Shown: positions 15,263-56,710 of the stretch, one piece after another
Layout of the letters: each line of letters starts with the position of its first letter
Position numbering within the stretch: the first letter of the stretch is position 1
Source: an uncultured Anaerolinea sp.
GTDB lineage: Bacteria; Chloroflexota; Anaerolineae; Anaerolineales; UBA4823
Direction of reading: 5' to 3'
Assembly: GCA_964503145.1 (NCBI GenBank)
Contig: CAZCYV010000017.1
Coordinates: forward strand, 16,718 to 80,717
DNA length: 64,000 bases
Notes under the pieces: generated by a model
The model's database searches: none
Told to the model about the DNA's origin: nothing
Seen by the model: only the letters and a program-made list of their open reading frames with translations
Program-made: the position numbers and the translations under genes

Positions 15263-15304
15263 GAAATCCCTTAATCTAATCTTAAGTTATTTCGAGAGTT
15301 CACC

Positions 15305-25676: not shown

Positions 25677-26408
25677 ATGAGCATCACCGTCCAGCTCTTC
25701 GTCACTTGCATTATCGACACGCTTTACCCCAAGGTCGGCGAGGCGGTCGTCAAAGTCCTGCAACGCGCCGGGGCTTCGGTGGAGTTTCCGGCGGGACAAA
25801 CCTGTTGCGGGCAGCCCGCTTTCAACGCCGGGATGCGCTCCCAGGCGCGGCCAATCGCCATGCACACCATCCAGGTTTTCGAAAAAACCAGCGGGCCTGT
25901 CGTAGTGCCCTCCGGTTCTTGCGCGGCGATGATGCGGCATGGCTATCTGGAATTGTTCGCCAAAGACCAGGAATGGCTCACCCGCGCCCGAGCCCTGGCC
26001 GAGCGTACCTTCGAACTGACCGAATTTCTGGTGGATCGACTGGGGGTGACCGACCTAGGGGCGAGCTTCCCTGGCAAGCTCACCTACCATGCTTCCTGCC
26101 ATTTGCTGCGCGACCTGGGCGTCGATTCACAGCCGCGGGCGCTGTTGGCAAAGGTGCGCCAGGCTGAACTGGTCGAATTGCCCTACGCTACCGACTGTTG
26201 CGGTTTCGGGGGCGTCTTCTCCGCCGAACATCCGGAGATCTCCACGGCCATGCTGGAACGCAAGATCGCCAATATCGAAGCCAGCGGCGCGCCGGTGGTC
26301 GTCTCCTGCGATGGCGGCTGCATCACCAACATCAACGGCGGTCTGCACCGGATGGGAAAAGCGCCGCACGCTGTGCATATCGCCGAAATTCTGGCGCGTT
26401 TCGACTAA
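25677..26408 (+). CDS. lutA: Lactate utilization protein A (CCG-domain Fe-S oxidoreductase, LutA/YkgE)
   Basis: 243 aa with two CCG motifs (QTCCGQPAFNAG and TDCCGFGG) and the typical N-terminus VQLFVTCIIDTLYP. Confidence 0.88.
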   Translation: MSITVQLFVTCIIDTLYPKVGEAVVKVLQRAGASVEFPAGQTCCGQPAFNAGMRSQARPIAMHTIQVFEKTSGPVVVPSGSCAAMMRHGYLELFAKDQEWLTRARALAERTFELTEFLVDRLGVTDLGASFPGKLTYHASCHLLRDLGVDSQPRALLAKVRQAELVELPYATDCCGFGGVFSAEHPEISTAMLERKIANIEASGAPVVVSCDGGCITNINGGLHRMGKAPHAVHIAEILARFD

Positions 26409-26443
26409 GGTCGTTGAATTGGACCGCCTCTCCAGGTGCATCG

Positions 26444-37247: not shown

Positions 37248-37321
37248 GCCCTCGTAGCTCAGTGGATTAGAGCACTTGCTTGCGGAGCAAGGGGTCGCGT
37301 GTTCGAGTCGCGCCGGGGGCG
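37248..37321 (+). tRNA. tRNA-Arg (anticodon GCG)
   Basis: Hand-folded cloverleaf. Acceptor stem GCCCUCG/CGGGGGC with one G-U pair, D-arm GCUC-AGUGGAUUA-GAGC with A20, anticodon arm CUUGC-UUGCGGA-GCAAG with anticodon GCG at 37282-37284. Variable loop GGGUC, T-arm GCGUG-UUCGAGU-CGCGC, discriminator G. CCA is not encoded. Confidence 0.9.
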
Positions 37322-38530: not shown

Positions 38531-38658
38531 GGGCGCAATTTCCCGGGGCGCGCCGCCAAAAGTCCGGGCGGTCGAGGCAAACCTTCTCCGCCCGGCAACG
38601 GCTCCGCGGCGCAGCTTGTAGCCGGGATCGCTCTGATCCCGGCAACAAGCCAATCAGG

Positions 38659-39999: not shown

Positions 40000-40002
40000 G
40001 GG

Positions 40003-40629
40003 TCACACTCCATACCATCCCTTGGCCAGGTTGACGGCGGTCATGGCATCTTTACCGTAGGCGTCCGCCCCGGTGTATTCCTTGATTTGGGCGTCGATCT
40101 GCCCACCCCCGATCATCACTTTGACATCTGTCAGCCCGGCGGCCTTCAGCGCCTCCACGGTGGCCTTCATCGGGTCATAAGCCAGGGTCAGGAATCCGCT
40201 CAAGCCGACCACCTTTGCGCCGGTCTGCTTTGCCGCCTCGACGAATTTGGCCGGCGGCACATCCACCCCCAAATCGGTGACCTCGAAACCGTTCACATCC
40301 AGCATGAAGGCCACAATGTCCTTGGCGATGTCATGGATATCGCCTTCCACCGTGCCGATGACCACCTTGCCCAGCTTTGTCGCTTCGGCGGTCTGCTGCA
40401 GGCGCGGCTTGATGATTTCCGTGACCTGGCGGAGCATCTCGCCCGCCAGGATCAACTCGGGGATGAAACAATCCCCCGCTTCGAAGCGCTTGCCGATCAC
40501 TTCCATCGCCTGGCGGCAGTCCTCCAGCACCTCCAGCGGAGAGACCCCCGCCTCCAGCATCTGGTTGGTGATCTTCAATGCATCTTCCTCACGCATATCT
40601 GTGATCGCATCGATCAATTCTTGGGACAT
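40003..40629 (-). CDS. Corrinoid (cobalamin-binding) protein, MtaC/MtbC-like
   Basis: 208 aa with an N-terminal helical cap domain and a Rossmann B12-binding domain. The His-on motif is GTVEGDIHDIAKD (DxHxxA variant of DxHxxG), with GLSGFLT and MIGGGQ. Confidence 0.92.
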   Translation of the reverse strand: MSQELIDAITDMREEDALKITNQMLEAGVSPLEVLEDCRQAMEVIGKRFEAGDCFIPELILAGEMLRQVTEIIKPRLQQTAEATKLGKVVIGTVEGDIHDIAKDIVAFMLDVNGFEVTDLGVDVPPAKFVEAAKQTGAKVVGLSGFLTLAYDPMKATVEALKAAGLTDVKVMIGGGQIDAQIKEYTGADAYGKDAMTAVNLAKGWYGV

Positions 40630-40675
40630 GTTTTCGGAACTCCTTTCTTTTGCTTTGGGCCGATTAAAACAAGGT

Positions 40676-41482
40676 TTATTCGCCGGATCTATCGAAAATC
40701 CCTTTGCGGGAGGCGCGAATGAAGTTCATACAGTAGGCGTCTCGACCGAGCAGCAGTTCAGTGGTCAGAATGGCGGCCTGAATCTCACGGTCGAGCGGAT
40801 CCAAGATGGCGCTATCCAATCCATTCTGAATCGCCAGGCTCAGGAAGTAGCGATTGATAAAGGAGCGCGCCGGCAGGCCGAAAGAAATATTGCTCAGCCC
40901 GATCGTCAGGTGCGCCTGCGGGAACTCCTGACGCACCAGGCGCATGGTGTCGAAGGCGATCACGGCGCTCTGAGTGTTGGTGGAGATGGTCATCGCCAAG
41001 GGGTCGATGTACAGATGATCGTCCGGCACCCCCATCTGGCGCGCTTCTGCGACCACCTTGCAGATCACCTCGAAGCGTTTTTCGCTGGTCTCGGGGATCT
41101 TCTTCTCGTCCATCGCCAGGGCGATCACCGGACAACCATGTTCGGCGACGATCGGCAGGACATGGGTCAGCCGATCCGGCTCGCCGCTGATCGAATTGAT
41201 CATCGGCGTCTGCTTCACCGCTTCCACGGCGATTTTCAAAGCTTGCGGATTGGCGCTATCCAGACACAGAGGGGTGTCCACGACAGCCTGGATGGTATCG
41301 ATCAGCCAGAGCAGATCCTCCGGCTCCCGGCTGGGATGCGTGCCCGCGTTCACATCCAGCCAGGCCGCTCCGGCTTCGCTCTGCTTTTTGGCCAGGCCAG
41401 CAATGTAATCGGCGTCGCGCTCGGCGATGGCCTGGGCAACGCGCTTGCGAGTGCCATTGATTTTTTCTCCGATGATTTTCAT
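40676..41482 (-). CDS. Methyltetrahydrofolate:corrinoid methyltransferase (pterin-binding, MeTr/AcsE/MtgA-like), the candidate MT2
   Basis: 268 aa pterin-binding TIM barrel: IIGEKINGTRK, LDVNAG, PLCLDSANP, INSISGE, YIDPL and GLSNISFGLP. Confidence 0.85.
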   Translation of the reverse strand: MKIIGEKINGTRKRVAQAIAERDADYIAGLAKKQSEAGAAWLDVNAGTHPSREPEDLLWLIDTIQAVVDTPLCLDSANPQALKIAVEAVKQTPMINSISGEPDRLTHVLPIVAEHGCPVIALAMDEKKIPETSEKRFEVICKVVAEARQMGVPDDHLYIDPLAMTISTNTQSAVIAFDTMRLVRQEFPQAHLTIGLSNISFGLPARSFINRYFLSLAIQNGLDSAILDPLDREIQAAILTTELLLGRDAYCMNFIRASRKGIFDRSGE

Positions 41483-41488
41483 GCGACT

Positions 41489-43327
41489 TCAATTCTCCCT
41501 GGGTGGGAATAGCATTGCCAGCGCAAACTGGCGGCTGAAATTGGGATAGGTGGTCAATTCCAGGTAGCGTGTGCGGCGAGCGATTTCCTGGGCGCGCTGG
41601 CGGGCGGCGCGCGAGATCAGGATCCATTTCGCCCCCAACGCGGCGGCGTTGCCCACCTGGCGATAGCGGGCATTTGGCAGGTGAGGAAACAACCCCATGT
41701 CGATCGCATTCTGGATGTTCAGGAAAGAACCAAACGCTCCGGCGACGATCACCTGTTGCACCGCCTCTGGCGGCGTACCGGTGGTTTCCAGCAAAATGTT
41801 CAACCCTGCCTGGATGGCGCCTTTGGCAAGCTGTATCTCGTTGACATCCTCTTGGGTAATCGAGATATCCCGGCCGCTGCCGCTGCGTTTTGCGGGTACG
41901 AGCACAAATTCGAGCCCGTGATCGCCCTGGCGGATGCCATCGCGATCGCGTTGAAAGCGCCCTCGCGCGTTCAGGTATCCCGCCTTGTACAGTTCAGCCA
42001 CCGCATCCAGGATGCCCGAGCCGCATAGCCCTACGGCCGGCTGATCTTCCACAGTGGTCAACTCCGGGCCGCGAGCGCTGATGCGCACTTTCTCGATCGC
42101 CCCTGCAGCAGCGCGCATGCCATCCCGAATGTGAGCGCCCTCGAAAGCTGGACCCGAAGCGCAAGAGACCGCAGTCAGGAAGGGTTGCGCGGGCAGGCGC
42201 AGGCTGATCTCGGTATTAGTGCCGATGTCCAATCCCAGGGTTACCTGATCGCTCTGATCCAGGTCGCTCGCCAACACCATCGCCACATGGTCGGCGCCGA
42301 CGAATCCGCCAATGCTGGGCGGGATATGGATAGTTGCGCCGGGCGCCATCTCCAACCCAATCTCGCTGGCGGGCACATCCAGCGCCGAGGAGGCGGCCGC
42401 CACGTAGGGCGCAGTGGCGAGCTGGCGCACGGGGAATTGCAGCAACAGGTGGATCATCGCAGTATTGCCCACAATGCAGGCTTCTGCTACCTGCTCTCTG
42501 CTTGCGCCAGCCCGGCGCAGCAAGTCGCCAAGCATTTCGTCCAGCGCCTGGCGCACCTTTTCGGCCAGAAGTTGTCCGCCATTGGCATTGCGCACGACGT
42601 GGTTCAGGCGGCTGATCACATCCTCGCCGTAACTGATCTGCGGATTTGGCGCGCCGGCCGAGGCCAGATCGGCGCCTGTTTCCAGATCCACCAGGAAAGC
42701 GGCGATCTTGGTCGTCCCCAGGTCGATCGCCAGGCCGAGCGGCCTTTCGCCAGCTGGTCGCACGCCCAGGATCGCGCCATCGCGCACGAAGACGCTGGCG
42801 CGCCAGCCCGTCGAACGCAGCGCGCCCGGCAGGCTGCGGATCAGCGATGCGCTGGCCTGTAACCCGCTGAGGCCATACCGGCTTTCCAATTCATCTGTGA
42901 GGCGGGTCAGATCCGAGCGCACATCCTCTAGCTTCGGCGGTTCAAGCTCTACCGCATAAGCGCGCACCAGCGGATCGGGCGGCGCCGGGCGCAGGTTGCT
43001 TTCGACCTGCAATCGCTGGCCGGTAATCAGAGAATCTTTGGGGAGATGGAGTTTGACATCGCTCAAAACCCGGGCGCAACAGGCCAGCCGGTAACCGTTG
43101 AGCTGGTCGGCTTCGTCGAGCAAAAAGTTTTCGTCTGCATTCAGCGGGCTGACTTCCCCGGCAAGCAGCACCACCCGGCACTGCCCGCAATCCCCTTCAC
43201 CGCCGCAAGCCGAAGCCAGGTCGATGCCGGCCTGGCGGGCGGCATCCAGGATAGTCGCCCCCGCGGCCACCCGAACGCGTTTGCCCAGCGGCTGGAATTG
43301 AACCTGCAGCGTCTGCGGCGCGTCCAT
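41489..43327 (-). CDS. Reductive activator of corrinoid enzymes (RACE/RamA-like: N-terminal 2Fe-2S ferredoxin plus ASKHA ATPase)
   Basis: 612 aa with a plant-type ferredoxin motif (CGGEGDCGQCRV...YRLACCARV) followed by an actin/sugar-kinase-like fold (GLAIDLGTTKIAAFLVD, GLDIGTNTEI, LCGSGILDA). Confidence 0.85.
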   Translation of the reverse strand: MDAPQTLQVQFQPLGKRVRVAAGATILDAARQAGIDLASACGGEGDCGQCRVVLLAGEVSPLNADENFLLDEADQLNGYRLACCARVLSDVKLHLPKDSLITGQRLQVESNLRPAPPDPLVRAYAVELEPPKLEDVRSDLTRLTDELESRYGLSGLQASASLIRSLPGALRSTGWRASVFVRDGAILGVRPAGERPLGLAIDLGTTKIAAFLVDLETGADLASAGAPNPQISYGEDVISRLNHVVRNANGGQLLAEKVRQALDEMLGDLLRRAGASREQVAEACIVGNTAMIHLLLQFPVRQLATAPYVAAASSALDVPASEIGLEMAPGATIHIPPSIGGFVGADHVAMVLASDLDQSDQVTLGLDIGTNTEISLRLPAQPFLTAVSCASGPAFEGAHIRDGMRAAAGAIEKVRISARGPELTTVEDQPAVGLCGSGILDAVAELYKAGYLNARGRFQRDRDGIRQGDHGLEFVLVPAKRSGSGRDISITQEDVNEIQLAKGAIQAGLNILLETTGTPPEAVQQVIVAGAFGSFLNIQNAIDMGLFPHLPNARYRQVGNAAALGAKWILISRAARQRAQEIARRTRYLELTTYPNFSRQFALAMLFPPREN

Positions 43328-43329
43328 GG

Positions 43330-44043
43330 CTACGCAGCGGAGTTATCCGGGAAAAAGCTGGCGTTGCCTGTGCTGGCGCCAGCGGCGCGAAAATCCAGGT
43401 AACTGATGGTCTGCCCTGGCGGGACGACTAGAAAATCATCGTCCCAGGGGCCGGTGAGCAACTTCAAGACCAGGGCGTTCGAGCCAGGGATCTCCTCGAA
43501 GCGCAGGTTGAACTTCTCCGCCGTCTTGCGCGCGTAATCCACATAGGCCTGCTTATCGCCGCGACCTGTATCGATGTACACCAGCCGGGTGTAGTTCTTG
43601 AGCATGGCGTGCATGATCCAATCGGCGCGTTCCTGACCGTATTGAGCCACCAGGCGCTCATATTCGTCGAACGGCGTGTCGGCGACTTCGATCCAACCTT
43701 TGGTCAGGTAATAGGTGCCAGGTTCTTTCCTTGACTGCTCAGAATAAGCCTCTCGGGAACCCAGGAATATGGCAATGCAATCGTCCACCCGCGGGATGAC
43801 CAATGTACAGTTGTTGGCCTTCAGGCCAATCACCGCCATGGAACACAGCCCATAGCCCAAAAGCAGGGTATCAAAAGAATCGCAGGAAGCGTCCACTGCT
43901 TCCTGCAATTTTTCCTTCAGAGTTCCTGGAGAGAGGTGAAGGCCGAAGTCCAGCACCTGGTAAGCCATGCCTTCGGGCATGAAGGGCAGCATCTCTTCGA
44001 TCACCGTAGCGCAGGCGATAATTTTTGTGCGGTCTGGGTTCAT
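43330..44043 (-). CDS. DUF1638 domain protein
   Basis: 237 aa. The pattern KIIACATVIEEM...LLLGYGLCS...IPRVDDCIAIFLGS...YYLTKGW matches what I recall of DUF1638, a family seen next to corrinoid methyltransferase genes. Its stop is 2 nt from the RACE start. Confidence 0.75.
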   Translation of the reverse strand: MNPDRTKIIACATVIEEMLPFMPEGMAYQVLDFGLHLSPGTLKEKLQEAVDASCDSFDTLLLGYGLCSMAVIGLKANNCTLVIPRVDDCIAIFLGSREAYSEQSRKEPGTYYLTKGWIEVADTPFDEYERLVAQYGQERADWIMHAMLKNYTRLVYIDTGRGDKQAYVDYARKTAEKFNLRFEEIPGSNALVLKLLTGPWDDDFLVVPPGQTISYLDFRAAGASTGNASFFPDNSAA

Positions 44044-44051
44044 CCTATTAA

Positions 44052-44091
44052 CCTATATAGTTATATAGGGAAGTCAGGAATATAGTATAAT
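44052..44091. promoter_or_regulatory. AT-rich divergent control region with an inverted repeat, a candidate GntR operator
   Basis: CCTATATA-GT-TATATAGG is a perfect 8-bp inverted repeat at 44052-44069. A further ATATAG lies at 44080-44085 and TATAAT at 44086-44091. The region sits between divergent DUF1638 and gntR genes in an otherwise GC-rich sequence. Confidence 0.45.
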
Positions 44092-44137
44092 ATGTCTGCG
44101 CAATAATTGTCAAGGCCAAAGCCACCCTGGCGATCTT

Positions 44138-44905
44138 ATGACACTCGGAAGGCGAAGTACCACAAAAAACGCGTATCAGATTGATCGCGACTCTTTCGAA
44201 CCCGCCTATCTACAACTGGCGAATATCTTACGCCGCCAGATTGCTGAGGGCGTCTTTCGGCCAGGCGATCAACTCCCTTCAGAAGCGCAGTTGGTCAGCC
44301 GTTATGGCGTCAGCCCGATGACGGTGCGCCGTTCGATCAATCTGCTGGCAGATCAGGGCGTGGTGAGCACTGCTCAGGGACGCGGCACCTTCGTCAAGGC
44401 GCTGGAGCTGAGCACGGCAATCTTCGACCTGCAAGACCTGGCCGATCTGTTTAAGGACGCCCCCGAAGACAGCATCCGGCTGCTGGATGTGCGCGTGGTC
44501 TCTGCAGACGAACGCACGGCGCGCAAGCTCGACCTGAAACCCGGCGATCCGGCGATCTACATCCGCCGCCTGTTCACCCGCGAGGATCTGCCGATCTTCT
44601 ATCATCGCGCCTATCTGATTTATGATCCCACCCGCCCCATCGTCGAGGCCGAGATGGACGTGACCTCTCTTCAAGGCCTGTTCACCAATGCGAACAACAG
44701 CCTGCTCAAATGCGGTCACTTGAAGATCGAAGCCACTCTGATGACCGAAGAAGAGGCCCGGCTGCTCAAGAAACCTCTGCCGGCGGCCGCGTTTCTCCTG
44801 GAGCACGTTTTCTTCGACTTCGACGGCCGGCCGATCAGTTGGGGCTGGTTCATTTTCCCGGGAGATCGCCTGCGCTTTCAGACCAAAGTGGGGATCGACG
44901 CCTAA
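44138..44905 (+). CDS. GntR family transcriptional regulator (HutC subfamily, UTRA effector domain)
   Basis: 255 aa with a winged HTH (LPSEAQLVSRYGVSPMTVRRSINLLADQGVVSTAQGRGTFV) and a UTRA-like C-terminal domain. Confidence 0.9.
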   Translation: MTLGRRSTTKNAYQIDRDSFEPAYLQLANILRRQIAEGVFRPGDQLPSEAQLVSRYGVSPMTVRRSINLLADQGVVSTAQGRGTFVKALELSTAIFDLQDLADLFKDAPEDSIRLLDVRVVSADERTARKLDLKPGDPAIYIRRLFTREDLPIFYHRAYLIYDPTRPIVEAEMDVTSLQGLFTNANNSLLKCGHLKIEATLMTEEEARLLKKPLPAAAFLLEHVFFDFDGRPISWGWFIFPGDRLRFQTKVGIDA

Positions 44906-44937
44906 ACCTTTCACCCTGCGACTTCGAAAAGGCAACT

Positions 44938-45609
44938 ATGGAACGACCTTTGAATGATAACGATCTCAGCAGCCAGCTCATTCGCTATGTGGCCGACTTG
45001 AAAGAGCAGGAAGCTCTGGCGCTGGTGCGGGAGCGGGTGGCTCAAAACGACGATCCGTTGTTGCTGGTGGAAAATTGCCAGGAAGGGTTGCGCATCGTCG
45101 GCGAACGCTATGAGCGCCAGGAGTACTATCTTTCTGGTCTGATTATGGCCGGAGAAATCTTCCGCGAGGTCATGGAAATCCTGGCCCCGATCATCGAGGG
45201 GCGCTTTTCGGGCAGCGAAAGCGGGGTCATCCTGCTGGGCACCGTGGAAGGGGATATCCACGACATCGGCAAGAACAACCTGAGCCTGCTGCTGACCTGT
45301 TACGGCTTTACTGTGAACGACCTGGGGGTAGATGTGCCTCCTGGGGAGTTTTTGTCTCAGGCGATGCAGCTCAAACCGGATATCATCGGCCTTTCCGGCC
45401 TGCTGACCAGTTCATACGATAGTATGCGCGCCACCGTGCAGTTACTGCGCTCGGCTTCGGATCACAGCGTCGCTGCCATCCCAATCGTCATCGGCGGCAA
45501 CCAACTCAACGAACAGGTATGCCAGTATGTGGGCGCTGACGCCTGGGTGACAGATGCCATGTCGGGTGTGCGCCTGTTCCAGAAGCTGATCGCTCAGCGG
45601 CAACAATAG
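44938..45609 (+). CDS. Second corrinoid (cobalamin-binding) protein
   Basis: Start moved to ATG 44938 (MERPLNDND). Cap domain plus B12-binding domain with the canonical GTVEGDIHDIGKN (DxHxxG), GLSGLLT and VIGGNQ. It lies 32 nt downstream of gntR on the same strand. Confidence 0.9.
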   Translation: MERPLNDNDLSSQLIRYVADLKEQEALALVRERVAQNDDPLLLVENCQEGLRIVGERYERQEYYLSGLIMAGEIFREVMEILAPIIEGRFSGSESGVILLGTVEGDIHDIGKNNLSLLLTCYGFTVNDLGVDVPPGEFLSQAMQLKPDIIGLSGLLTSSYDSMRATVQLLRSASDHSVAAIPIVIGGNQLNEQVCQYVGADAWVTDAMSGVRLFQKLIAQRQQ

Positions 45610-45810: not shown

Positions 45811-45838
45811 TTGACTCCGGCAAATGTTGTGGTAAAAT
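45811..45838 (+). promoter_or_regulatory. Strong sigma-70-type promoter candidate about 330 nt upstream of glpF
   Basis: TTGACT (45811-45816), a 16-nt spacer, then TGgTAAAAT (45830-45838). Architecture and the GTGGTAAAAT 10-mer are the same as in the tRNA-Arg promoter at 37197-37224. Confidence 0.5.
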
Positions 45839-46167: not shown

Positions 46168-46962
46168 ATGAAATCGAAAGGCTTGACCGCAGAATTGATC
46201 GGAGAGGTGTTCGGCACCTTCATCCTGATCCTGTTGGGCGACGGCGTAGTGGCGAACGTGGGCCTTGCGCCGCGCCTGGCCGCACCCGCGTATAACTGGA
46301 ACACCATTACCTTCGGTTGGGCGTTCGCGGTTATCGTGGCAGTGTACGTGTCGGCGGGCGTCTCCGGGGCTCATCTGAACCCGGCCGTGACCCTGGCCCT
46401 GGCCGTGAAGCGCGGCTTCCCGTGGGGCAAAGTTCTGCCCTATATGGTGGCGCAGGTCTTTGGTTGCTTCCTGGGCGCTGCGGGCGTGTACCTGGCCTAT
46501 GGAGATGGTCTGCGCGCCGCGGGTATGCCCAACGTCTGGTGCACCGGCCCTGGCTCGGTCTTCGCTTCCGCTTTCTGGGGCGGCGCTGCCGGCTCGGCCA
46601 TTGGCCCTTACTCGCTGACAGGGGCGATCCTGACCGAAATCCTGGGCACCGCAGTGTTGTTGTGGGGCGTCCTGGCCAGCGGCGACTCGCGCAACATCGG
46701 CCTGATGCACAACTTGGGCCCCTTCCTGGTCGGCGGCACCGTTCTGGCAGTCGGCCTCTCCCTGGGCGGCCCGAGCGGTTACGCGATCAACCCCGCCCGC
46801 GACCTGGGTCCGCGCCTCTTTGGGACGCTGGTTGGAACGAAAGGCCTGTTCGATGGCCTCTACTGGTTGGTGGCGCCGATCATCTCCACTCTCATCGGCG
46901 GTTTGGTGGGTGTGTTCACTTACGACTGGTTCATCACAAGCGGACTGCCGGAGAAAAAGTAA
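46168..46962 (+). CDS. glpF: Glycerol uptake facilitator (aquaglyceroporin)
   Basis: 264 aa MIP-family protein with both NPA boxes (SGAHLNPAVTLA, GYAINPARDLGPR). GGAG RBS upstream. Confidence 0.93.
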   Translation: MKSKGLTAELIGEVFGTFILILLGDGVVANVGLAPRLAAPAYNWNTITFGWAFAVIVAVYVSAGVSGAHLNPAVTLALAVKRGFPWGKVLPYMVAQVFGCFLGAAGVYLAYGDGLRAAGMPNVWCTGPGSVFASAFWGGAAGSAIGPYSLTGAILTEILGTAVLLWGVLASGDSRNIGLMHNLGPFLVGGTVLAVGLSLGGPSGYAINPARDLGPRLFGTLVGTKGLFDGLYWLVAPIISTLIGGLVGVFTYDWFITSGLPEKK

Positions 46963-48775: not shown

Positions 48776-50275
48776 ATGGCTAAGTACGCAGCAGCAGTCG
48801 ATCAAGGGACTACCAGCACCCGCTTCATGATCTTTGATCACAGCGGCAAGGTTGTCTCGGTAGCACAGAAAGAACACGAGCAGATCTACCCGAAGCCTGG
48901 GTGGGTCGAGCACGATCCAATGGAAATCTGGGCCCGCACCCAGGAAGTGATTAAAGAGGCGCTGGCCAAGGCGAACGTCGACCCCAAGGACATCGCCGCT
49001 GTGGGCGTCACCAACCAACGCGAGACGACCGTTATATGGGAAAAGGCGACTGGCAAGCCGGTTTACAACGCCATTGTCTGGCAGGATACGCGCACCGACA
49101 GGATCTGCAATGACCTGGCTAAGGATGGCGGTCAGGATCGCTTCCGCCCCAAAGTTGGCCTGCCTCTGGCGACCTACTTCTCTGGCCCGAAGATCAAGTG
49201 GGTCCTGGATAACATCGAGGGCGTGCGCGAGAAGGCGGAAAAAGGTGAGGTGTTGTTCGGCAACATCGACACCTGGGTGATCTGGAATCTGACCGGCGGG
49301 CCCAATGGCGGCGTGCATGTGACCGATGTCTCCAACGCCTCCCGCACCATGCTGATGAACCTGGAAACACTCGACTGGGATCCAGAAATCTTGCAGCTTA
49401 TGGGTGTGCCCCGCGCCATGCTGCCGGCGGTCCGCGCCTCCAGCGAAGTGTACGGCACTGCGGTGGGCGATCTGGCAGGCGTTCCCGTAGCCGGCGACCT
49501 GGGCGACCAGCAGGCGGCGCTCTTTGGGCAGACCTGCTTCAGCGTCGGCGAGGCCAAGAACACCTATGGCACCGGCTGCTTCATGCTGCTCAACACCGGC
49601 ACCAACGCAGTCCAATCCAAGAACGGCCTGCTGACCACGCTGGCCTACAAGATCGGCAGCCAGCCGGCGGTCTATGCCCTGGAAGGCTCCATCGCCATCA
49701 CCGGCGCTCTGGTGCAGTGGCTGCGCGACAACATGGGCCTGGTCGAGAAGTCGGCGGATGTCGAAGCGCTGGCCAACACCGTGGAAGATAACGGCGGCAT
49801 CTACTTCGTACCCGCCTTCTCCGGTCTGTTCGCCCCCTACTGGAAGAGCGACGCCCGCGGCGTGATCGTTGGCCTGACCCGCTACGTCAACAAGGGCCAT
49901 ATCGCCCGCGCTGCCCTGGAAGCCACCGCTTACCAGACTCGCGAAGTCCTGGACGCGATGAATAAGGACTCGGGCGTCAACCTGACCGCCCTGAAGGTCG
50001 ATGGCGGCATGGTGTACAACGACACCCTGATGCAATTCCAGGCCGACATCCTGGGCGTGCCGGTCGTTCGCCCCACCGTTGCCGAAACGACCTCGCTGGG
50101 CGCGGCTTACGCCGCCGGCCTGGCCGTGGGCTTCTGGAAAGAGGTGGAAGACCTGCGCGAGAATTGGGGCAAGGATAAAGAGTGGCTGCCCAAGATGGAT
50201 GCGGAACACCGCGAAAAGCTGTACAAAGGCTGGCTTAAGGCGGTCACCCGCACCTTCGACTGGGTCGAACAATAA
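48776..50275 (+). CDS. glpK: Glycerol kinase
   Basis: 499 aa with [39 protein letters not shown] and [20 protein letters not shown]. Confidence 0.97.
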
Positions 50276-50291
50276 TCGGCGAGCGGTATCG

Positions 50292-50324
50292 GATCAGAGG
50301 GGGAGCTGGTTTACCCCTCTGATC
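50292..50324 (+). terminator. Hairpin after glpK (possible terminator or processing site, no U-tract)
   Basis: Perfect 11-bp stem GATCAGAGGGG (50292-50302) / CCCCTCTGATC (50314-50324). It is followed by tgatgg, not a T-run. Confidence 0.4.
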
Positions 50325-50458
50325 TGATGGAACCCGCCTCGCCCGGCATCCAGGCGACATACCTGCGATGACCCAGGTATGTCGCCTGGTACTTCTAACA
50401 CATGATCTGGTTACCGCTTTCAACGAATTCGATGATATTGGTGGTGAATGGTGAGTTC

Positions 50459-50728
50459 ATGACAAAGCAGACAAAAAAATCCTCCGATCATCCAAAAGAG
50501 AAACGCATAAAGCTGCCCTCGCAACCCGCTGGCGCGTGGATTTCCATGAGAACAGGGATCATCGTGATCAGCATTGTCAGCCTGGGGATGGCTGTGCTTA
50601 CAGCCTGGCAGGCTGTGCCAATCAAGGGTTGGCTCGAGGGGATCCTATGGGGATTGTTGTTCGGCGGCTCGATCTGGGTCATCTTTCTGGGTTTTCTGCT
50701 CTACGGTCGGCTGTTCCGAAAAGGTTGA
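50459..50728 (+). CDS. Small hypothetical membrane protein (two TM helices)
   Basis: Likely start is ATG 50459 (MTKQTKKSSDHPKEKR), followed by two hydrophobic helices. No family recognised. It sits inside the glycerol cluster. Confidence 0.4.
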   Translation: MTKQTKKSSDHPKEKRIKLPSQPAGAWISMRTGIIVISIVSLGMAVLTAWQAVPIKGWLEGILWGLLFGGSIWVIFLGFLLYGRLFRKG

Positions 50729-50757: not shown

Positions 50758-51351
50758 ATGGCAATGGATGCCATTCAGGATAAGCTCGATCGTTGGGAAG
50801 CGTCCTGGGCGGCTTACGACGAGGCGACTTACCAGGATGTTCTGGCAGCTATTGGCCGCCAGGATATCGTCTATGAGATCGGCGCCGGCGACTTGCGCCT
50901 GGCCCGGCGCATGGCGGCAATCGCCAGGCGCGTCTACGCCATAGAAATCCAAGAACCTTTGTTGGCGCAAGCCTGTCGCTCGCAAGAGCCGCTCCCCGCT
51001 AACCTGATCATCCAATGCGGGGATGCCCGGAGGATGCCAGTGCCGACAGGCACGACGGTGGGTGTGCTGCTGATGCGCCATTGCACACATTTCCAGCTTT
51101 ATGCTCAGAAATTAAAGCTGGCCGGCGCTCATACCTTGATCACGAACGCCCGCTGGAAGATGGCTGTGGAACGGGTGCTGCTCCAGCAGCGACGTCTGCT
51201 CTATCAGGACATAGACATGGGATGGTATGCCTGCTGGTGCGGCGCGGTTGGATTCAAGCCCGGGCCGGCAGAAAGGTTAACTCCAGAGTTGGAGGCTGCC
51301 GTTTACGAAGTTCAGGATTGCCCGCAGTGCTCCAACGCCTTGAGAAAATAG
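50758..51351 (+). CDS. Class I SAM-dependent methyltransferase-like protein with a C-terminal Cys4 cluster
   Basis: 197 aa with motif I-like VYEIGAGDLRLA and a post-I acidic residue (YAIEIQ). The C-terminal CWCG...CPQC suggests a zinc ribbon. Function unknown. Confidence 0.55.
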   Translation: MAMDAIQDKLDRWEASWAAYDEATYQDVLAAIGRQDIVYEIGAGDLRLARRMAAIARRVYAIEIQEPLLAQACRSQEPLPANLIIQCGDARRMPVPTGTTVGVLLMRHCTHFQLYAQKLKLAGAHTLITNARWKMAVERVLLQQRRLLYQDIDMGWYACWCGAVGFKPGPAERLTPELEAAVYEVQDCPQCSNALRK

Positions 51352-51416: not shown

Positions 51417-52586
51417 ATGACCAAACCACATGTGATCATCATCGGCGCAGGGTTCACCGGGGTTGCCACAGCCCACGACCTGGCCCTGCGCGGCTTTGAC
51501 GTCACCGTCGTCGAGCGTGGGCCGATTGCGAACGGCACTTCAGGCCGGACCCACGGCCTGCTGCACAGCGGCGGTCGCTACGCCGTTAAGGACAAAGAAT
51601 CGGCTGTCGAATGCATCGAGGAAAACATGATCTTGCGCAAGATCGTCCCCAATGTCATCGAGCCGAACGGCGGTTTGTTCATCGCCCTGACAGAGAGCGA
51701 CCTGGCTTACGGCGAGGATTTCATCGAAGGCTGCCAGGAGTGTAACATCCCCATCGAAGAATTGACCCCCAAGCAGGCTTTGGAACTGGAGCCTAACCTG
51801 AACCCGAAGCTGCTTTCGGCCTTCATCATACCCGACGGCACGTTTGATCCTTTGCGCCTGGCGCTCTCCTTTGCCGCCACCGCCAAATCCAACGGCGCCC
51901 GCTTTCGACTGTACACCGAAGTGGAACAAATGATCCTGGACGGGAAGGGCAACGTCGTCGGGGTAAAGATCTGGGATCGCAAAACCGGCCAACGCGGCGA
52001 GATTCGCGCAGATCTTGTGGTCAATGCCACCGGCGCCTGGGCAGGGGAGATCGCAGCCATGGCTGGCGGTTCAGTGCCGATCAAGCCAACGCCCGGAATC
52101 ATGGTCGCCTATGACCAGCGTCTGGCCCAACGGGCGATCAACCGCCTCTGCCCGCCCAGCGATGGCGATATCATCCTGCCTCAGCGGCGGATGATGGTCG
52201 TTGGCACGACCTCCTATGAAGTGGACAACCTGGATTACGTGCCCGTGATCGAAGAGCAGATCGAGATGATGCTCGAGCGCGGCGCCGAAATGGTGCCCGG
52301 CATCCGCCAGGCCAAAGTGCGCGGCGTGTACACTGCGACCCGTCCGCTGATCGGCGCTGGCTCCACCGGGCGCAGCATTGCGCGCACGTTCAAGTGCTTC
52401 GACCACAAGGAATCTGACAATGTCGATGGCCTGATCACCATCACCGGCGGCAAGGCCACCACCTTGCGGGCAATGGCAGAGAAAACCGCGGACATGGCTT
52501 GCGCTAAGCTGGGCGTCTCTGCACCATGCATGACCAAAGAAGTCCCGCTCATCAGCTATCGCCAATTCTATGCTCTACCCGACTAG
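51417..52586 (+). CDS. glpA: FAD-dependent glycerol-3-phosphate dehydrogenase, GlpA-like flavoprotein (short form)
   Basis: 389 aa with the dinucleotide fold VIIIGAGFTGVATAHDLALRG. GRTHGLLHSGGRYAVKD and ITITGGKATTLRAMAE are colinear with E. coli GlpA residues ~1-400 as I recall them. It ends where GlpA's C-terminal BFD-like domain would begin. Confidence 0.82.
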   Translation: MTKPHVIIIGAGFTGVATAHDLALRGFDVTVVERGPIANGTSGRTHGLLHSGGRYAVKDKESAVECIEENMILRKIVPNVIEPNGGLFIALTESDLAYGEDFIEGCQECNIPIEELTPKQALELEPNLNPKLLSAFIIPDGTFDPLRLALSFAATAKSNGARFRLYTEVEQMILDGKGNVVGVKIWDRKTGQRGEIRADLVVNATGAWAGEIAAMAGGSVPIKPTPGIMVAYDQRLAQRAINRLCPPSDGDIILPQRRMMVVGTTSYEVDNLDYVPVIEEQIEMMLERGAEMVPGIRQAKVRGVYTATRPLIGAGSTGRSIARTFKCFDHKESDNVDGLITITGGKATTLRAMAEKTADMACAKLGVSAPCMTKEVPLISYRQFYALPD

Positions 52587-52595
52587 AGAGGCCTT

Positions 52596-53324
52596 ATGAT
52601 CAACAACTGGACGGTTACTTTCCTGGTTTACCGGCAAAAGGGCGAAGAGCCAGGACATTTCGACAGCTTCAAAGTGGATGTCAACCCAGATGAGTACGTC
52701 CTGGATGCCATCGAGCGCATCTGGGCCTTCCAGGACCGTTCGCTCACCTTTGCCCATGCCTGCCACCACTCGACCTGCGGCGCGTGCGGTATGCGGGTCA
52801 ACGGTGTAGAAAAACTGACCTGCATCACCCCAATCCGCAGCGTTACCGAAAACGGCGGCACGATCCAGGTCGAGCCGATGCGCAATTTTCCGGTAGTAAG
52901 CGACCTGGTGGTGGATCTCGGCGTGATGTTCCGCCGCATGGAGGCCGTAGGCCACCGGCCAGTGCTGCCGCTGGCGGAGGAACCTGCTCCCACATCGGGC
53001 AACCCGCCCAGGCCGGAAGACATGCAGATCATCCGGCTGGCCGATTGCATCGAATGCGGGCTGTGCATCAGCGCCTGTCCCATAGCGCTGACCACTCCGA
53101 CCTATTTGGGGCCGGCGGTCCTGGCCGGAGCGCAGCAGCACGGTCTGGATGGCAACCGCTCCCTGCTGGCGCTCGTGGATAGCCAGGATGGCGTGTGGCG
53201 TTGCCACAGCGCATTCGAGTGCAGCGCCGTCTGCCCTTCCAATGTTGACCCGGCGCGCCGGATCATGGACCTGCGCAAACAGGTCATCCGCGCTCGGATC
53301 ATGAGTTTCTTCCGCCGGGATTGA
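52596..53324 (+). CDS. Succinate dehydrogenase/fumarate reductase-type iron-sulfur subunit (SdhB-like)
   Basis: 242 aa with all three Cys clusters intact: CHHSTCGACGMRVNGVEKLTC (2Fe-2S), CIECGLCISACP and CHSAFECSAVCP (4Fe-4S and 3Fe-4S). Confidence 0.88.
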   Translation: MINNWTVTFLVYRQKGEEPGHFDSFKVDVNPDEYVLDAIERIWAFQDRSLTFAHACHHSTCGACGMRVNGVEKLTCITPIRSVTENGGTIQVEPMRNFPVVSDLVVDLGVMFRRMEAVGHRPVLPLAEEPAPTSGNPPRPEDMQIIRLADCIECGLCISACPIALTTPTYLGPAVLAGAQQHGLDGNRSLLALVDSQDGVWRCHSAFECSAVCPSNVDPARRIMDLRKQVIRARIMSFFRRD

Positions 53325-53343
53325 TTGAGAAAAGGAACCCATC

Positions 53344-53736
53344 ATGAGCAATCCACGAAACACACCCACACCCTCTAACTGGCTTAAGTGGTTCGACCCT
53401 CGAGGGCGCAATATCGGCACCTATGCTTTCATCCTGAACCGGATCACCGCAATAGGGCTGACATTCTATTTGTTTCTCCATTTGATAGTGCTTGGTCAAC
53501 TGGCAAAGGGGCCTGAAGGCTATGACAACTTCCTCAGGATGATCGACAGCCCGCTATATCTTTTCGGTGAGTTATTGGTCATCGCCGCGGTGCTGATCCA
53601 CGGTCTGAATGGTATTCGCGTCGCCCTGACCAGTTTTGGCATCGGCGTGAACGCCCAGAAACAAGCCTTTTACGCCGTGATGGTGGTGGCGATCGTCGGC
53701 AGTCTGATCTTCGCCGTGCGCATGATCATCGGCTAG
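53344..53736 (+). CDS. SdhC-like membrane anchor (cytochrome b subunit type)
   Basis: 130 aa with three TM helices. FILNRITAIGLTFYLFLHL and LIHGLNGIRV resemble SdhC heme/quinone-site helices. Confidence 0.7.
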   Translation: MSNPRNTPTPSNWLKWFDPRGRNIGTYAFILNRITAIGLTFYLFLHLIVLGQLAKGPEGYDNFLRMIDSPLYLFGELLVIAAVLIHGLNGIRVALTSFGIGVNAQKQAFYAVMVVAIVGSLIFAVRMIIG

Positions 53737-53771
53737 CTCCGAGTTGCCTTGAAAACATGAAGGAATGAGCT

Positions 53772-54146
53772 ATGACAAACATGACTTCAGAACGACCCTC
53801 TAGCGAGAGCGGCTGGCTCTGGCTGTTCAAAATTGTTTCGGGGCTGTTGCTCGTCTTGATCCTGTTGATCCATCTGATCGTCAATCACATGCTGGGCACA
53901 GAGGGCGGTTTGCTCACCTTTGCCGAGGTGGTCAAGTACTATCAGAACCCGATCATCCCCATTATGGAAGGCGCCTTCCTGATCTTTGTCGTCTCCCATT
54001 CGCTGATTGGACTGCGGAGCATCATCCTGGATCTCAACCCATCGCCAAAGGTCTTGAGCGGCGTCACCTGGGTGTTGACCGGCGTGGGCGCAGTTTCCAT
54101 CATCTACGGCATCTGGCTGCTCCTGGCGATCGTCGCCCAGGGTTGA
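53772..54146 (+). CDS. SdhD-like membrane anchor subunit
   Basis: 124 aa with three TM helices and conserved-looking His residues (LILLIHLIVNHM, VVSHSLIGLRSIILD). It directly follows the SdhC-like gene. Confidence 0.6.
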   Translation: MTNMTSERPSSESGWLWLFKIVSGLLLVLILLIHLIVNHMLGTEGGLLTFAEVVKYYQNPIIPIMEGAFLIFVVSHSLIGLRSIILDLNPSPKVLSGVTWVLTGVGAVSIIYGIWLLLAIVAQG

Positions 54147-54175: not shown

Positions 54176-56710
54176 ATGGTTGGGTTAGTGATCGTATCGC
54201 ACAGCCGGGCTCTGGGAGAAGCGCTGGCCGGTTTAGTCGGCCAGATCGCTTCTCAAGGGGTCCCTATCGCCGTCGCAGGAGGGGTAGGCCCAGACCGTCA
54301 GGAGTTTGGGACCGACGCGGTAGAGATCATGGAAGCCATCCAGTCGGTGGACGGCCCCGATGGGGTGGTCGTGTTGATGGACCTGGGCAGCGCTGTGCTC
54401 AGCGCAGAAATGGCCTTGGAATTCTTACCGCCGGAAACCGCGGAAAGGGTCTCGCTTTGCGCCGCGCCGCTGGTCGAAGGCGCCATTGCGGCTGGGGTTC
54501 AGGCCAGTTTGGGGATGGATCGAGAAACAATCTGCAAAGAGGCGATGACCGCCCTGCTGCCGAAGACGGATCACCTGTTGCCAGGCGCAGAAACAGCCCA
54601 GCCAGTGGCGGAAGCGGTGAGCGCGCTGCAACAGGTCGAAGAACGCGTGGTGTTGACTCTGCACAACCTGCACGGGTTACACGCCCGCCCGGCGGCGCGC
54701 TTCGTGCAGACCGCGGCGAGCTTCCCCGCCGATATCCGCGTCCGGAACCTGACGACCGGAAAAGGCCCGGTCACGGCGAAGAGCCTGAACGCCCTGGTGA
54801 CATTGGGCGCGGTGAAAGATCACCAGATCGAGATCACCGCCAGCGGCCCGCAATCGGAGCAAGCCATCCAGGCGCTGCAAAAGCTGGTGGAAGACAGCTT
54901 CGGCGAGGCAATAGAACCTGCTCCCCCACGACCGGAGCGCATCAGGCCGACCGAAGGCGCGGCGGGCTCGCAGCCAGCCGTCCCGGTATCTGACGGCGTT
55001 GCCCTGGGGCCGTTCTTTCGTTTCCAGGCTCCCCCGCCGCCGGTAGTGGAAGGCAAGACCGACCACCCCGAACAGGACTGGGAGCAGTTGCAGCGCGCCC
55101 TGGAAACGACTCGCCTGGCCATTCGCCAGCGCCAGGGGCTGCTAGCAGCAACCTTGGGGCCAGAAGAAACGGCGATATTCGACGCCCATTTGCTCATTCT
55201 GCAAGACCCAGACCTGCTCGAAGCGGTCAAAGAGCGCATCCTGGTTCAGGGCGAGAATGCCGCCTGGGCCTGGCAGACCTGCATCCATTCGGTCGCGTCC
55301 ACTTATCAGGGGCTTGACGACCCCTATTTCCAGCAGCGCGCCATTGATGTGCTCGATGTGGGCAACCAGGTGCTGTTCGCCCTGGCAGGCAAAGCGCCCG
55401 CTGCAGAAATCCAGCTCTCGCAGCCGGTGGTCTTGTTCGCCGAAGACCTGACCCCCACAGAAACCGCCCAATTGGACATGAACCAGGTGTTGGGGATCAT
55501 CACGGTGGGTGGGGGGCCCACATCTCACAGCGCTATCCTGGCGCGCTCGTTGGGCATACCGGCCGTCTCTGGAGCCAGCCCCAATCTTGAAAGGGTGCAA
55601 GATGGCACGCTGGTAGGGGTGGATGGCGCCCGAGGGGCAATTTGGGTCGAGCCTGCGCCGGAGGTGCAGGAAGAATTGAAACAGCGCCGCGAGAAATGGC
55701 TCAGCGAGCGACAACGCTTGCAGAAGGTCAGCCATGCGTTGGCAATGACCCGTGACGGCCGACGCGTCGAAATCGTTGCCAACGTAGGGAACATCCTGGA
55801 TGCGAAGGCAGGATTACAAAACGGCGCTGAAGGCATTGGCTTGCTGCGAACTGAGTTTCTATACCTGACTCGCGAGACGGCGCCTGAGGAGGACGAGCAG
55901 GCTCATTCGCTAAGGCAGATCGCTGAAGCGCTGGCAGAAGATGGAAATCAAAACCGGCCGATCGTCGTGCGCACGATGGACATCGGCGGTGATAAAGCGC
56001 TGCCCTACCTGCCAATGCCGCCAGAAGCCAATCCCTTCCTGGGTGTGCGGGCGTTGCGGCTTTCCCTGCGCAATCCAGAGATTTTCTCCTCGCAGCTCAA
56101 AGCCATCCTCAGGGCGGGGTTGGGCTTCAATTTCAAAGTGATGTTTCCAATGGTTGCCAACCTGGACGAAGTTCGGCAAGCCAGACAATGGCTGGAAAAG
56201 GCCCACCAGGAATTGGCGGATAAGAACATCCCCCATATCTGGCCGATTGAAACCGGCATCATGGTCGAGATCCCTTCCGCAGCCCTGATCAGCAACGTGT
56301 TAGCGCCGAACGTCGATTTCTTCAGCATCGGCACCAATGATCTGACCCAGTACACCCTGGCGGCCGAGCGGGGAAACCCGGCGCTTTCGGGCTTCGCGGA
56401 TGGATTGCACCCAGCCGTTTTGCGGCTGATCCAGATGGTGACAGATTCCGCTCACAAACACGGCAAATGGGTGGGCGTCTGTGGAGAACTGGCTGGCGAC
56501 CCCCTGGCAGGGCCGATCTTAGTGGGACTGGGCGTGGATGAGCTGAGCATGAACCCGGGCAGCATCCCTCGGATGAAAGAAATCCTGCGGAAGATCGACC
56601 TGGCAGAGGCTCAATCGCTGGCCCGGTCGGCGCTAGAAATGGTGGACGCGGCTCAGGTTCGCCAGATGGCGCGCAAATTTGCTGAAGACAAGTTACTCGA
56701 GCTACTGTGA
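54176..56710 (+). CDS. dhaM: Multidomain phosphotransfer protein: DhaM (EIIA-Man-like), HPr-like and full-length Enzyme I (PtsI)
   Basis: 844 aa. N-terminal EIIA-like domain GLVIVSHSRALGE...LMDLGSAV, HPr-like domain LHNLHGLHARPAARFV, and EI with the phospho-His region GGPTSHSAILARSLGIPAV. The C-terminal PEP-binding barrel has IGTNDLTQYTLA and CGELAGDP. Confidence 0.9.
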   Translation: MVGLVIVSHSRALGEALAGLVGQIASQGVPIAVAGGVGPDRQEFGTDAVEIMEAIQSVDGPDGVVVLMDLGSAVLSAEMALEFLPPETAERVSLCAAPLVEGAIAAGVQASLGMDRETICKEAMTALLPKTDHLLPGAETAQPVAEAVSALQQVEERVVLTLHNLHGLHARPAARFVQTAASFPADIRVRNLTTGKGPVTAKSLNALVTLGAVKDHQIEITASGPQSEQAIQALQKLVEDSFGEAIEPAPPRPERIRPTEGAAGSQPAVPVSDGVALGPFFRFQAPPPPVVEGKTDHPEQDWEQLQRALETTRLAIRQRQGLLAATLGPEETAIFDAHLLILQDPDLLEAVKERILVQGENAAWAWQTCIHSVASTYQGLDDPYFQQRAIDVLDVGNQVLFALAGKAPAAEIQLSQPVVLFAEDLTPTETAQLDMNQVLGIITVGGGPTSHSAILARSLGIPAVSGASPNLERVQDGTLVGVDGARGAIWVEPAPEVQEELKQRREKWLSERQRLQKVSHALAMTRDGRRVEIVANVGNILDAKAGLQNGAEGIGLLRTEFLYLTRETAPEEDEQAHSLRQIAEALAEDGNQNRPIVVRTMDIGGDKALPYLPMPPEANPFLGVRALRLSLRNPEIFSSQLKAILRAGLGFNFKVMFPMVANLDEVRQARQWLEKAHQELADKNIPHIWPIETGIMVEIPSAALISNVLAPNVDFFSIGTNDLTQYTLAAERGNPALSGFADGLHPAVLRLIQMVTDSAHKHGKWVGVCGELAGDPLAGPILVGLGVDELSMNPGSIPRMKEILRKIDLAEAQSLARSALEMVDAAQVRQMARKFAEDKLLELL

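Follow-up and report, generated by a model that had tools for sequence, protein, structure and literature searches.

Canonical GlpA, the catalytic subunit of the respiratory glycerol-3-phosphate (G3P) dehydrogenase GlpABC, passes its electrons to its own C-terminal BFD-type [2Fe-2S] domain and from there to GlpB and GlpC. In the DNA analysed here, a stretch of 64,000 nucleotides from contig CAZCYV010000017.1 (assembly GCA_964503145.1) of an uncultured Anaerolinea sp. that is referred to as the window, a short GlpA-type flavoprotein is encoded directly upstream of an SdhB-like iron-sulfur protein and two membrane proteins resembling SdhC and SdhD. Based on the sequence analysis these four genes probably encode one membrane-bound respiratory G3P dehydrogenase, that is, a G3P:menaquinone oxidoreductase with a GlpA-type subunit docked on a complex-II-type chassis.

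A “GlpA-SdhBCD” complex has been drawn before for Thermofilum pendens (Tpen_1127 and its neighbours) by Schmerling et al. 2025 (Commun Biol, Fig. 9b), based on synteny alone (PMC11962113). In archaea related to Thermofilum, sdhB-, sdhC- and sdhD-like genes lie behind glpA and, according to the supplement of that study, these GlpAs are almost devoid of a C-terminal extension and end in a very short helix (PMC11962113). The same paper characterises the GlpA-CoxG enzyme of Sulfolobus experimentally and reports that canonical glpA of bacteria consistently co-occurs with glpB and glpC (PMC11962113). In a full-text literature search it was, together with its preprint, the sole source for the GlpA-SdhBCD architecture, while a review on complex II in the Journal of Biological Chemistry mentions neither glycerol nor GlpA. 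Since the complex of T. pendens has been drawn there, the kind of enzyme has already been proposed, as a prediction only. The statement in the original prediction that no characterised enzyme with this architecture was known thus holds with regard to biochemical characterisation, but the architecture as such had been described from synteny (PMC11962113). What appears to be new here is the wide bacterial distribution, the exclusivity seen in the reverse synteny analysis, the gene fusions and the match to the haem ligands of a type A enzyme.

The module in the window consists of the following genes:

51417-52586, + strand: short GlpA-type FAD (flavin adenine dinucleotide) flavoprotein of 389 amino acids, predicted G3P-oxidising subunit (Pfam DAO, TIGR03377)
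52596-53324, + strand: iron-sulfur subunit of the SdhB/FrdB type, 242 amino acids, with [2Fe-2S], [4Fe-4S] and [3Fe-4S] motifs (Fer2_3 and Fer4_8, TIGR00384)
53344-53736, + strand: SdhC-like membrane anchor with three helices, 130 amino acids (Pfam Sdh_cyt, TIGR02970)
53772-54146, + strand: SdhD-like membrane anchor with three helices, 124 amino acids (Pfam Sdh_cyt)

The coordinates, lengths and spacing of these four open reading frames agree exactly with those given originally, and their setting in a glycerol cluster (glpF, dhaK, dhaL, glpK, dhaM) is real. The gaps within the module measure 9, 19 and 35 nucleotides, each of them containing a Shine-Dalgarno-like purine run, and 29 more nucleotides lead to the gene of a DhaM fusion protein. 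The absence of SdhA/FrdA, glpB and glpC from the locus was likewise corroborated when the whole window was searched in all six frames with E. coli SdhA, GlpB and GlpC: no homologue of SdhA or GlpB was detected, and the only other GlpC-like match was LutA at 25.7 kb.

By description the closest known system is that of T. pendens, which combines a GlpA without C-terminal extension with subsequent SdhB-, SdhC- and SdhD-like genes in a proposed membrane complex. However, that system is archaeal and synteny-based, whereas the module of the window is bacterial, extends over at least five phyla, is embedded in a glpF-dhaKL-glpK...dhaM operon and occurs in fused forms. With GlpABC of E. coli it shares a homologous catalytic subunit (43% identity, DAO domain) and the presumed reaction from G3P to dihydroxyacetone phosphate (DHAP) with electron transfer to menaquinone, but it lacks the BFD-like [2Fe-2S] domain, GlpB and GlpC, and its relay and anchor are of the complex II type. 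GlpA-CoxG of Sulfolobus acidocaldarius (Saci_2032/2031) resembles it in having a truncated GlpA that lost the BFD domain and a membrane partner other than GlpBC; it differs in the small CoxG-like partner, the absence of an Fe-S relay and a haem anchor, and a C-terminal tail of about 50 amino acids retained by its GlpA. GlpD, finally, has the same DAO fold, catalyses the same reaction and is among the top structural matches, but it shares only 27% identity with the window protein and possesses a C-terminal domain of about 115 amino acids without counterpart in the latter. Moreover, GlpD reduces quinone directly without Fe-S partners, while the flavoprotein of the window is paired with an Fe-S subunit.

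The short flavoprotein and its complex-II-type partners

Domain assignment of the four proteins by hidden Markov models resulted in DAO/GlpA for the flavoprotein, Fer2_3 and Fer4_8 for the iron-sulfur protein and Sdh_cyt for both membrane proteins. The flavoprotein matches Pfam DAO from end to end (E 1.5e-56), and its best NCBIfam family is GlpA (TIGR03377, E 5.9e-134), which it covers at model positions 1-380 of 530. Its score of 447.5 bits stays below the equivalog cutoff of 552.8 because the C-terminal 150 model positions (381-530) are absent. In the alignment with E. coli GlpA and GlpD the protein terminates about 20 residues short of the first cysteines of the BFD domain. The BFD-like [2Fe-2S] C-terminal domain of GlpA is therefore absent, with zero residues beyond the DAO core relative to other family members. 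The sequence motifs originally quoted for the flavoprotein are present as well, and its claimed stop ahead of that domain is borne out by the alignment and the TIGR03377 match.

Several lines of evidence place the protein with the G3P enzymes rather than with other DAO enzymes, as had been presumed. Besides its best family and the glpK linkage, these are the fold and the conserved positions. The AlphaFold2 (AF2) model (pLDDT 87.3, pTM 0.87), which ends in a four-residue helix at 383-386, retrieved GlpD, GlpO and a Bacillus G3P dehydrogenase as top folds with TM-scores of 0.80-0.83 (normalised to the query), followed by glycine and sarcosine oxidases with TM-scores of about 0.75. The models for ThiO, sarcosine oxidase and similar enzymes reached only E > 1e-25, and the NCBIfam GlpD models NF008899 and NF009906 gave 103 bits (cutoff 360) and 90 bits (cutoff 352), respectively. 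A match to PF00890 is limited to the 46-residue dinucleotide-binding motif. The positions aligned to H50, R54, Y55, T270, R317, R332 and K354 of E. coli GlpD, which we take from the GlpD structure to be substrate or FAD-site residues, are kept in the flavoprotein and invariant in its family. Conservation of the G3P site across these enzymes has also been reported, without residue numbers being stated (PMC11962113).

In a neighbour-joining tree built after a GlpA homologue search among 1.84 billion representative proteins, the window protein belongs to a short-form clade, whose members extend past the DAO core by 0-24 residues and which stands apart from the long canonical GlpAs, including that of E. 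coli, and from GlpA-GlpB fusions of 920-1000 amino acids. Among its distant representatives the only names found were those of Chloroflexota and Bacillota.

The SdhB-like protein reaches 169 bits against TIGR00384 (cutoff 88) and carries all three cysteine clusters attributed to it (C56-x4-C61-x2-C64-x11-C76; C151-x2-C154-x2-C157-x3-C161-P; C203-x5-C209-x3-C213-P); the 11 cluster cysteines are invariant in 66 of 66 homologues. It can thus be regarded as a complete protein of the SdhB type. Its best matches in the PDB are FrdB of E. coli (116 bits), SdhB of Sdh2 from Mycobacterium smegmatis (115 bits) and SdhB of E. coli (108 bits), while the SdhB of the solved succinate:quinone oxidoreductase (SQR) of Chloroflexus aurantiacus (9lay_B) scores lower with 82 bits. 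None of the NCBIfam equivalog models for SdhB or FrdB reaches its cutoff with the protein.

Both membrane proteins exceed the cutoff of Pfam Sdh_cyt (PF01127, 25.8 bits), the SdhC-like one with 60.8 and the SdhD-like one with 41.8 bits, and the former additionally matches TIGR02970 (59.2 bits, cutoff 52.3). As originally described, each of them is a three-helix membrane protein with histidine-bearing helices; the histidines lie in helices 1 and 2 of the three hydrophobic transmembrane segments. According to a comparison with the PDB, the best match of the SdhC-like protein is chain C of M. smegmatis Sdh2 (6lum_C, E 2.8e-12). Sdh2 is a di-haem succinate:menaquinone oxidoreductase of type A (PMC8054011), in which haem bP is ligated by His C87/D107 and haem bD by His C47/D65 (6LUM; PMC7447783). 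Ungapped phmmer alignments place H86 of the SdhC-like and H76 of the SdhD-like protein on the bP ligands and H46 and H34 on the bD ligands. H46 and H86, the predicted haem ligands of the SdhC-like protein, are invariant in 55 of 55 homologues, and in the SdhD-like protein H34, H39 and H76 are invariant in 54 of 54, H34 and H76 being the ligands predicted from the alignment with 6lum_D. The module hence resembles Sdh2 in its three-cluster SdhB, its two three-helix anchors and its conserved haem histidines C47, C87, D65 and D107, but it lacks SdhA/FrdA and has a DAO-fold flavoprotein in its place. Due to the haem-ligand match, the similarity pattern of the SdhB-like protein and the failure of all equivalog models to reach their cutoffs, the chassis is assigned to a branch of its own within the complex II superfamily, which has type A features and for which two haems are predicted.

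Conservation and fusion of the module

The conservation of the four-gene module was analysed in both directions. For the forward analysis an alignment of the short clade was used to retrieve the top 80 loci from 80 species genomes, all of them bacterial, and the open reading frames were scored by phmmer against the proteins of the window and against E. coli GlpA/B/C, SdhA/B/C/D and GlpD. Of 79 complete GlpA homologues 78 are short, and a gene for an SdhB-like protein directly follows that of the short GlpA in 72 of the 78 loci with sufficient room; a further locus (L054) has sdhBCD upstream instead, raising the adjacency to 73/78. SdhC-like and SdhD-like genes come next in 52 and 50, respectively, of the 70 loci with room, and glpK is present at the same locus in 43/80 genomes.

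In the reverse analysis an alignment of the SdhB-like protein retrieved 80 metagenome contigs with 42-72% identity. A short GlpA is encoded directly upstream in 62 of the 65 contigs with upstream sequence and downstream of sdhBCD in two more, so that the genes are adjacent in 64/65. Behind the SdhB-like gene an SdhC-like one was detected in 65/68 cases and an SdhD-like one in 53/55. No homologue of SdhA was identified in any of the 160 related loci (80 from genomes, 80 from metagenomes). Given this adjacency and the lack of SdhA, the SdhB-like clade is essentially dedicated to short GlpA.

The expectation that the module is conserved across genomes was thereby confirmed in both directions and in at least five phyla. 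The four-gene form occurs in the Chloroflexota (Anaerolineae including the isolate Thermanaerothrix solaris, Ardenticatenaceae, Promineifilum and Limnocylindrales), in the Actinomycetota (Solirubrobacterales, Streptosporangiaceae and Cellulomonas) and in one metagenome-assembled genome (MAG) of the Planctomycetaceae. The pairwise distances of GlpA correlate with those of the SdhB-like protein (r = 0.84, n = 62) and with those of GlpK (r = 0.53); the former correlation is consistent with, but no proof of, inheritance as a unit. Canonical glpABC and the short glpA-sdhBCD are neighbours in two MAGs, one of Chloroflexota and one of Streptosporangiaceae (L017 and L055), indicating that these are distinct systems which are able to coexist. 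Three further loci in Thermoflexales and other Chloroflexota (L033, L050 and L051) encode a short GlpA but no SdhB-like gene was found in the 7 kb flanking it on each side, so that some short GlpAs are either orphans or work with an unlinked partner.

No fusions of GlpA with SdhB were present among 150 representative GlpA homologues, where the proteins of 920-1000 amino acids are the GlpA-GlpB fusions mentioned above, and they surfaced only when genomes were scanned and when such fusions were searched for specifically. One open reading frame of 712 amino acids in Cellulomonas sp. T2.31MG-18 comprises DAO (14-368), Fer2_3 (461-563) and Fer4_8 (600-672) and is followed by SdhC-like and SdhD-like genes. 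The dedicated search revealed about 30 clusters of such fusions with lengths of 664-752 amino acids and 67-96% identity, among others in Cellulomonas sp. SG140 and P24, Pengzhenrongella phosphoraccumulans, Isoptericola sp. b490 and Actinotalea sp. M2MS4P-6. The fusion gene and the first of two subsequent Sdh_cyt genes share an overlap of 4 nucleotides in two genomes that are finished or nearly so. GlpA-SdhB is consequently a conserved Rosetta-stone fusion of about 690 amino acids in cultured actinobacteria of the Cellulomonadaceae type and no assembly error, and it provides the strongest in-silico evidence for a joint function of GlpA and the SdhB-like protein in one enzyme. In another locus (L085) SdhB is fused to SdhC.

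The fused locus of Pengzhenrongella (L091) has genes for Memo, AMMECR1 and a radical SAM (S-adenosylmethionine) protein directly behind the fused glpA-sdhB, sdhC and sdhD (12899-15376), and genes encoding a Dak1-Dak2 kinase, TIM and RpiB are located 5 kb away.

Proposed electron transfer and alternative readings

The domain composition, the intact cofactor ligands, the operon, the co-conservation in both directions and the GlpA-SdhB and SdhB-SdhC fusions were directly observed. The reading as a modular swap, in which a GlpA-type flavoprotein is wired to an Fe-S relay and anchor of the complex II type, is supported by the two-way synteny, the fusions and the haem-ligand match. Glycerol would be imported by GlpF and phosphorylated to G3P by GlpK, and the short GlpA would oxidise G3P to DHAP on non-covalently bound FAD. 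From this FAD the electrons would be transferred to the [2Fe-2S] cluster at the N-terminus of the SdhB-like protein. This cluster may functionally stand in for the BFD [2Fe-2S] domain that canonical GlpA possesses and the short form has lost, and would pass the electrons on to the [4Fe-4S] and [3Fe-4S] clusters of the same protein. The electrons would then enter the two-subunit di-haem b anchor of type A and reach menaquinone via haem bP and possibly haem bD. The textbook midpoint potentials of about -190 mV for G3P/DHAP and about -75 mV for menaquinone render this reaction exergonic, unlike the oxidation of succinate by menaquinone. What we infer is that the four proteins assemble into a complex in this organism, which substrate and which quinone are used, that two haems are present, and on which side and with what energetics the quinone is reduced.

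Some observations weigh against this proposal. In the Desulfobacterota and Spirochaetota short GlpA is paired with an SdhB-like protein, but neither glpK nor a membrane anchor recognisable as Sdh_cyt accompanies the two; a link to quinone, and even one to glycerol, is hence no general feature of the pair. A natural Cellulomonas fusion modelled with AF2 (mean pLDDT 73.8, pTM 0.60) has a disordered linker at 396-438, and the model is uninformative as to how FAD and [2Fe-2S] cluster face each other. Furthermore, the support for every member of this kind of enzyme is computational.

The pair-only loci (L066, L053, L068-L070, L072, L073, L076-L084, L087 and L088) belong to Desulfobacterota, including Nitratidesulfovibrio, to Spirochaetota, to bacterium UASB14 and to a Bacteriovoracaceae MAG. 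Within 7 kb of these pairs glpK was not found, and the open reading frames considered as anchor candidates downstream either have no Pfam family or are unrelated (HD, histidinol dehydrogenase). Such pairs standing alone may indicate that the heterodimer of GlpA and SdhB-like protein is the functional unit and serves a non-quinone acceptor, with the SdhC- and SdhD-like proteins being mere anchors or part of another route. The long SdhB-like proteins in two Solirubrobacterales loci lacking SdhC and SdhD (L022 and L024) point in the same direction. While the pairs of Desulfobacterota and Spirochaetota may plausibly work in this way, the scenario is implausible for the lineage of the window, where the anchor genes are tightly linked and the four haem-ligand histidines are invariant, and the SdhB-SdhC fusions and the SdhC-like genes behind 65 of 68 SdhB-like genes in the metagenome loci argue against it as well. 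As an account of the module in the window it seems rather unlikely.

With respect to these variants it was also observed that the C-terminal half of Desulfovibrio-type SdhB-like proteins is divergent. In the two Solirubrobacterales loci (L022, 7977-9887; L024, 8028-9776) the SdhB-like open reading frame is extended by a C-terminal region of about 300 amino acids, which matches no Pfam family and shows weak similarity to GlpC; SdhC- and SdhD-like genes are absent there. The extra region may represent a different anchor or acceptor module.

Many DAO-fold enzymes oxidise other 2-hydroxy or amino compounds, and the complex could be real while its flavoprotein acts on such a substrate instead of G3P. 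The score below the GlpA equivalog cutoff (447 vs 553 bits), the glycine and sarcosine oxidases in the fold search (TM about 0.75) and the location of the module apart from glpK in Cellulomonadaceae, Desulfobacterota and Spirochaetota would be compatible with this assumption. However, the gap in score is caused by the 150 missing model positions, and the 380 matched ones give E 5.9e-134, compared to E > 1e-25 for ThiO and sarcosine oxidase. Taking furthermore into account the 43% identity to E. coli GlpA, the invariance of the residues aligned to GlpD R54, R317, R332 and K354 and the presence of glpK and glpF in the operon here and in 43/80 genomes, a different substrate is unlikely because of the GlpA-specific score and the glpK/glpF linkage.

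That the sdhB-, sdhC- and sdhD-like genes, which do belong to the SdhB and Sdh_cyt families, encode ordinary complex II subunits for an SdhA encoded elsewhere and stand beside glpA incidentally is very unlikely, considering that the SdhB clade lies beside short GlpA in 64/65 metagenome and 73/78 genome loci but never beside SdhA, that SdhA is absent from all 160 loci, that the SdhB-like protein is covalently fused to GlpA in Cellulomonadaceae, that no NCBIfam SdhB/FrdB equivalog model reaches its cutoff, and that the SdhB of the Chloroflexus SQR (9lay_B, 82 bits) ranks below E. coli FrdB and the SdhB of M. smegmatis Sdh2.

Glycerol operon and significance of the finding

The G3P:menaquinone oxidoreductase proposed for the window would be part of a glycerol operon, the remaining genes of which are:

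46168-46962, + strand: glpF, glycerol facilitator of the MIP family, first gene of the cluster (Pfam MIP in the identical contig L001)
47031-48733, + strand: dhaK and dhaL, subunits of dihydroxyacetone kinase (Dak1 and Dak2 in L001; kept in related loci)
48776-50275, + strand: glpK, glycerol kinase, G3P supply (FGGY_N, FGGY_C)
50402-50728, + strand: membrane protein of 108 amino acids with two helices, accessory gene (no Pfam match)
50758-51351, + strand: SAM-methyltransferase-like protein of 197 amino acids, accessory gene (weak match to Methyltransf_25)
54176-56710, + strand: fusion of DhaM, HPr and enzyme I, 844 amino acids, last gene of the cluster (Pfam, TIGR01417 and TIGR02364)

All genes are oriented in one direction in the order glpF, dhaK, dhaL, glpK, the genes of the two-helix and the methyltransferase-like protein, glpA, the sdhB-, sdhC- and sdhD-like genes and the dhaM-HPr-enzyme I fusion. 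A promoter-like site was predicted 5' of glpF (45811-45838) and no terminator-like sites were found between glpA and the sdhD-like gene, both of which are weak evidence. The closest named relatives of the window are Anaerolineales. The identical locus is contained in a metagenome contig of 107 kb from JGI (L001), and the whole cluster was also identified on contigs of 3.05 Mb and 5.37 Mb with about 77% protein identity.

The DhaM fusion comprises the domains EIIA-man, PTS-HPr, PEP-utilisers_N, PEP-utilizers (mobile) and PEP-utilizers_C, the PEP-utiliser domains corresponding to a complete enzyme I. It serves as the phosphoenolpyruvate (PEP)-dependent phosphoryl donor for DhaKL and could constitute a self-contained phosphorelay from PEP to DhaL. 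In many loci of Chloroflexota and Actinomycetota the glycerol cluster likewise has this fusion conserved at its 3' end.

Homologues of the two accessory genes accompany the module in Chloroflexota (L005, L006, L010-L012, L019-L021, L035 and L071), where they are located either before glpA or, as in L019-L021 and L071, after sdhD. The methyltransferase-like protein contains a C-terminal CxC...CPQC motif, and a gene of this type also lies behind a lone short GlpA in Thermogutta (L089). The two-helix and the methyltransferase-like protein may be assembly or accessory factors.

The spacer of 126 nucleotides 3' of glpK harbours two strong hairpins (50288-50328 and 50350-50389), neither of which has a T-tract; the arms of one are 15 nucleotides long and 93% complementary, those of the other 16 nucleotides and 100%. 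They could represent an attenuator, an RNA-processing site or a REP-like element dividing the cluster into two transcription units.

Directly upstream of the glycerol cluster a corrinoid-dependent methyltransferase system is encoded (37331-45609), which comprises an MFS transporter, a URO-D/MtaA-like protein, a pterin-binding protein, the reductive activase RACo, a DUF1638 protein, a GntR/UTRA regulator and a B12-binding corrinoid protein. It is preceded by a tRNA gene at 37248-37321. A lactate-utilisation cluster consisting of lutA, which encodes CCG domains, and lutB- and lutC-like genes is situated at 25677-28519 (+ strand). The GlpC-like match at 25.7 kb was rejected as a hidden glpC, since it is the LutA beside LutB/C.

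Regarding the family as a whole, it seems likely that the Fe-S and di-haem chassis of complex II is a modular quinone-reducing platform which captured a DAO-fold flavoprotein, and that the resulting enzymes form a third major class of respiratory G3P dehydrogenases beside GlpD and GlpABC. Members of this class would be widely distributed among Chloroflexota, Actinomycetota and Planctomycetota, and derivatives reduced to the two genes for GlpA and SdhB would occur in Desulfobacterota and Spirochaetota. The bacterial module contradicts the published generalisation that glpA of bacteria always pairs with glpBC (PMC11962113). At present its proteins are annotated as an unrelated “FAD-dependent oxidoreductase” and as subunits of “succinate dehydrogenase” or fumarate reductase, and the sdhB-, sdhC- and sdhD-like genes are open to being miscounted as a partial complex II or as genes of the tricarboxylic acid cycle in reconstructions from MAGs of Chloroflexota and Actinomycetota. 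Cultured hosts are available with Cellulomonas sp. P24 and SG140, Pengzhenrongella phosphoraccumulans and Thermanaerothrix solaris, and the natural GlpA-SdhB fusion offers a handy entry for purification and cryo-electron microscopy.

If the proposal is true, the SdhB/C/D module works without SdhA and the chassis of complex II would be interchangeable between flavoprotein families. For the Anaerolineales, which are often regarded as fermenters, it would imply a quinone-linked respiration of glycerol.

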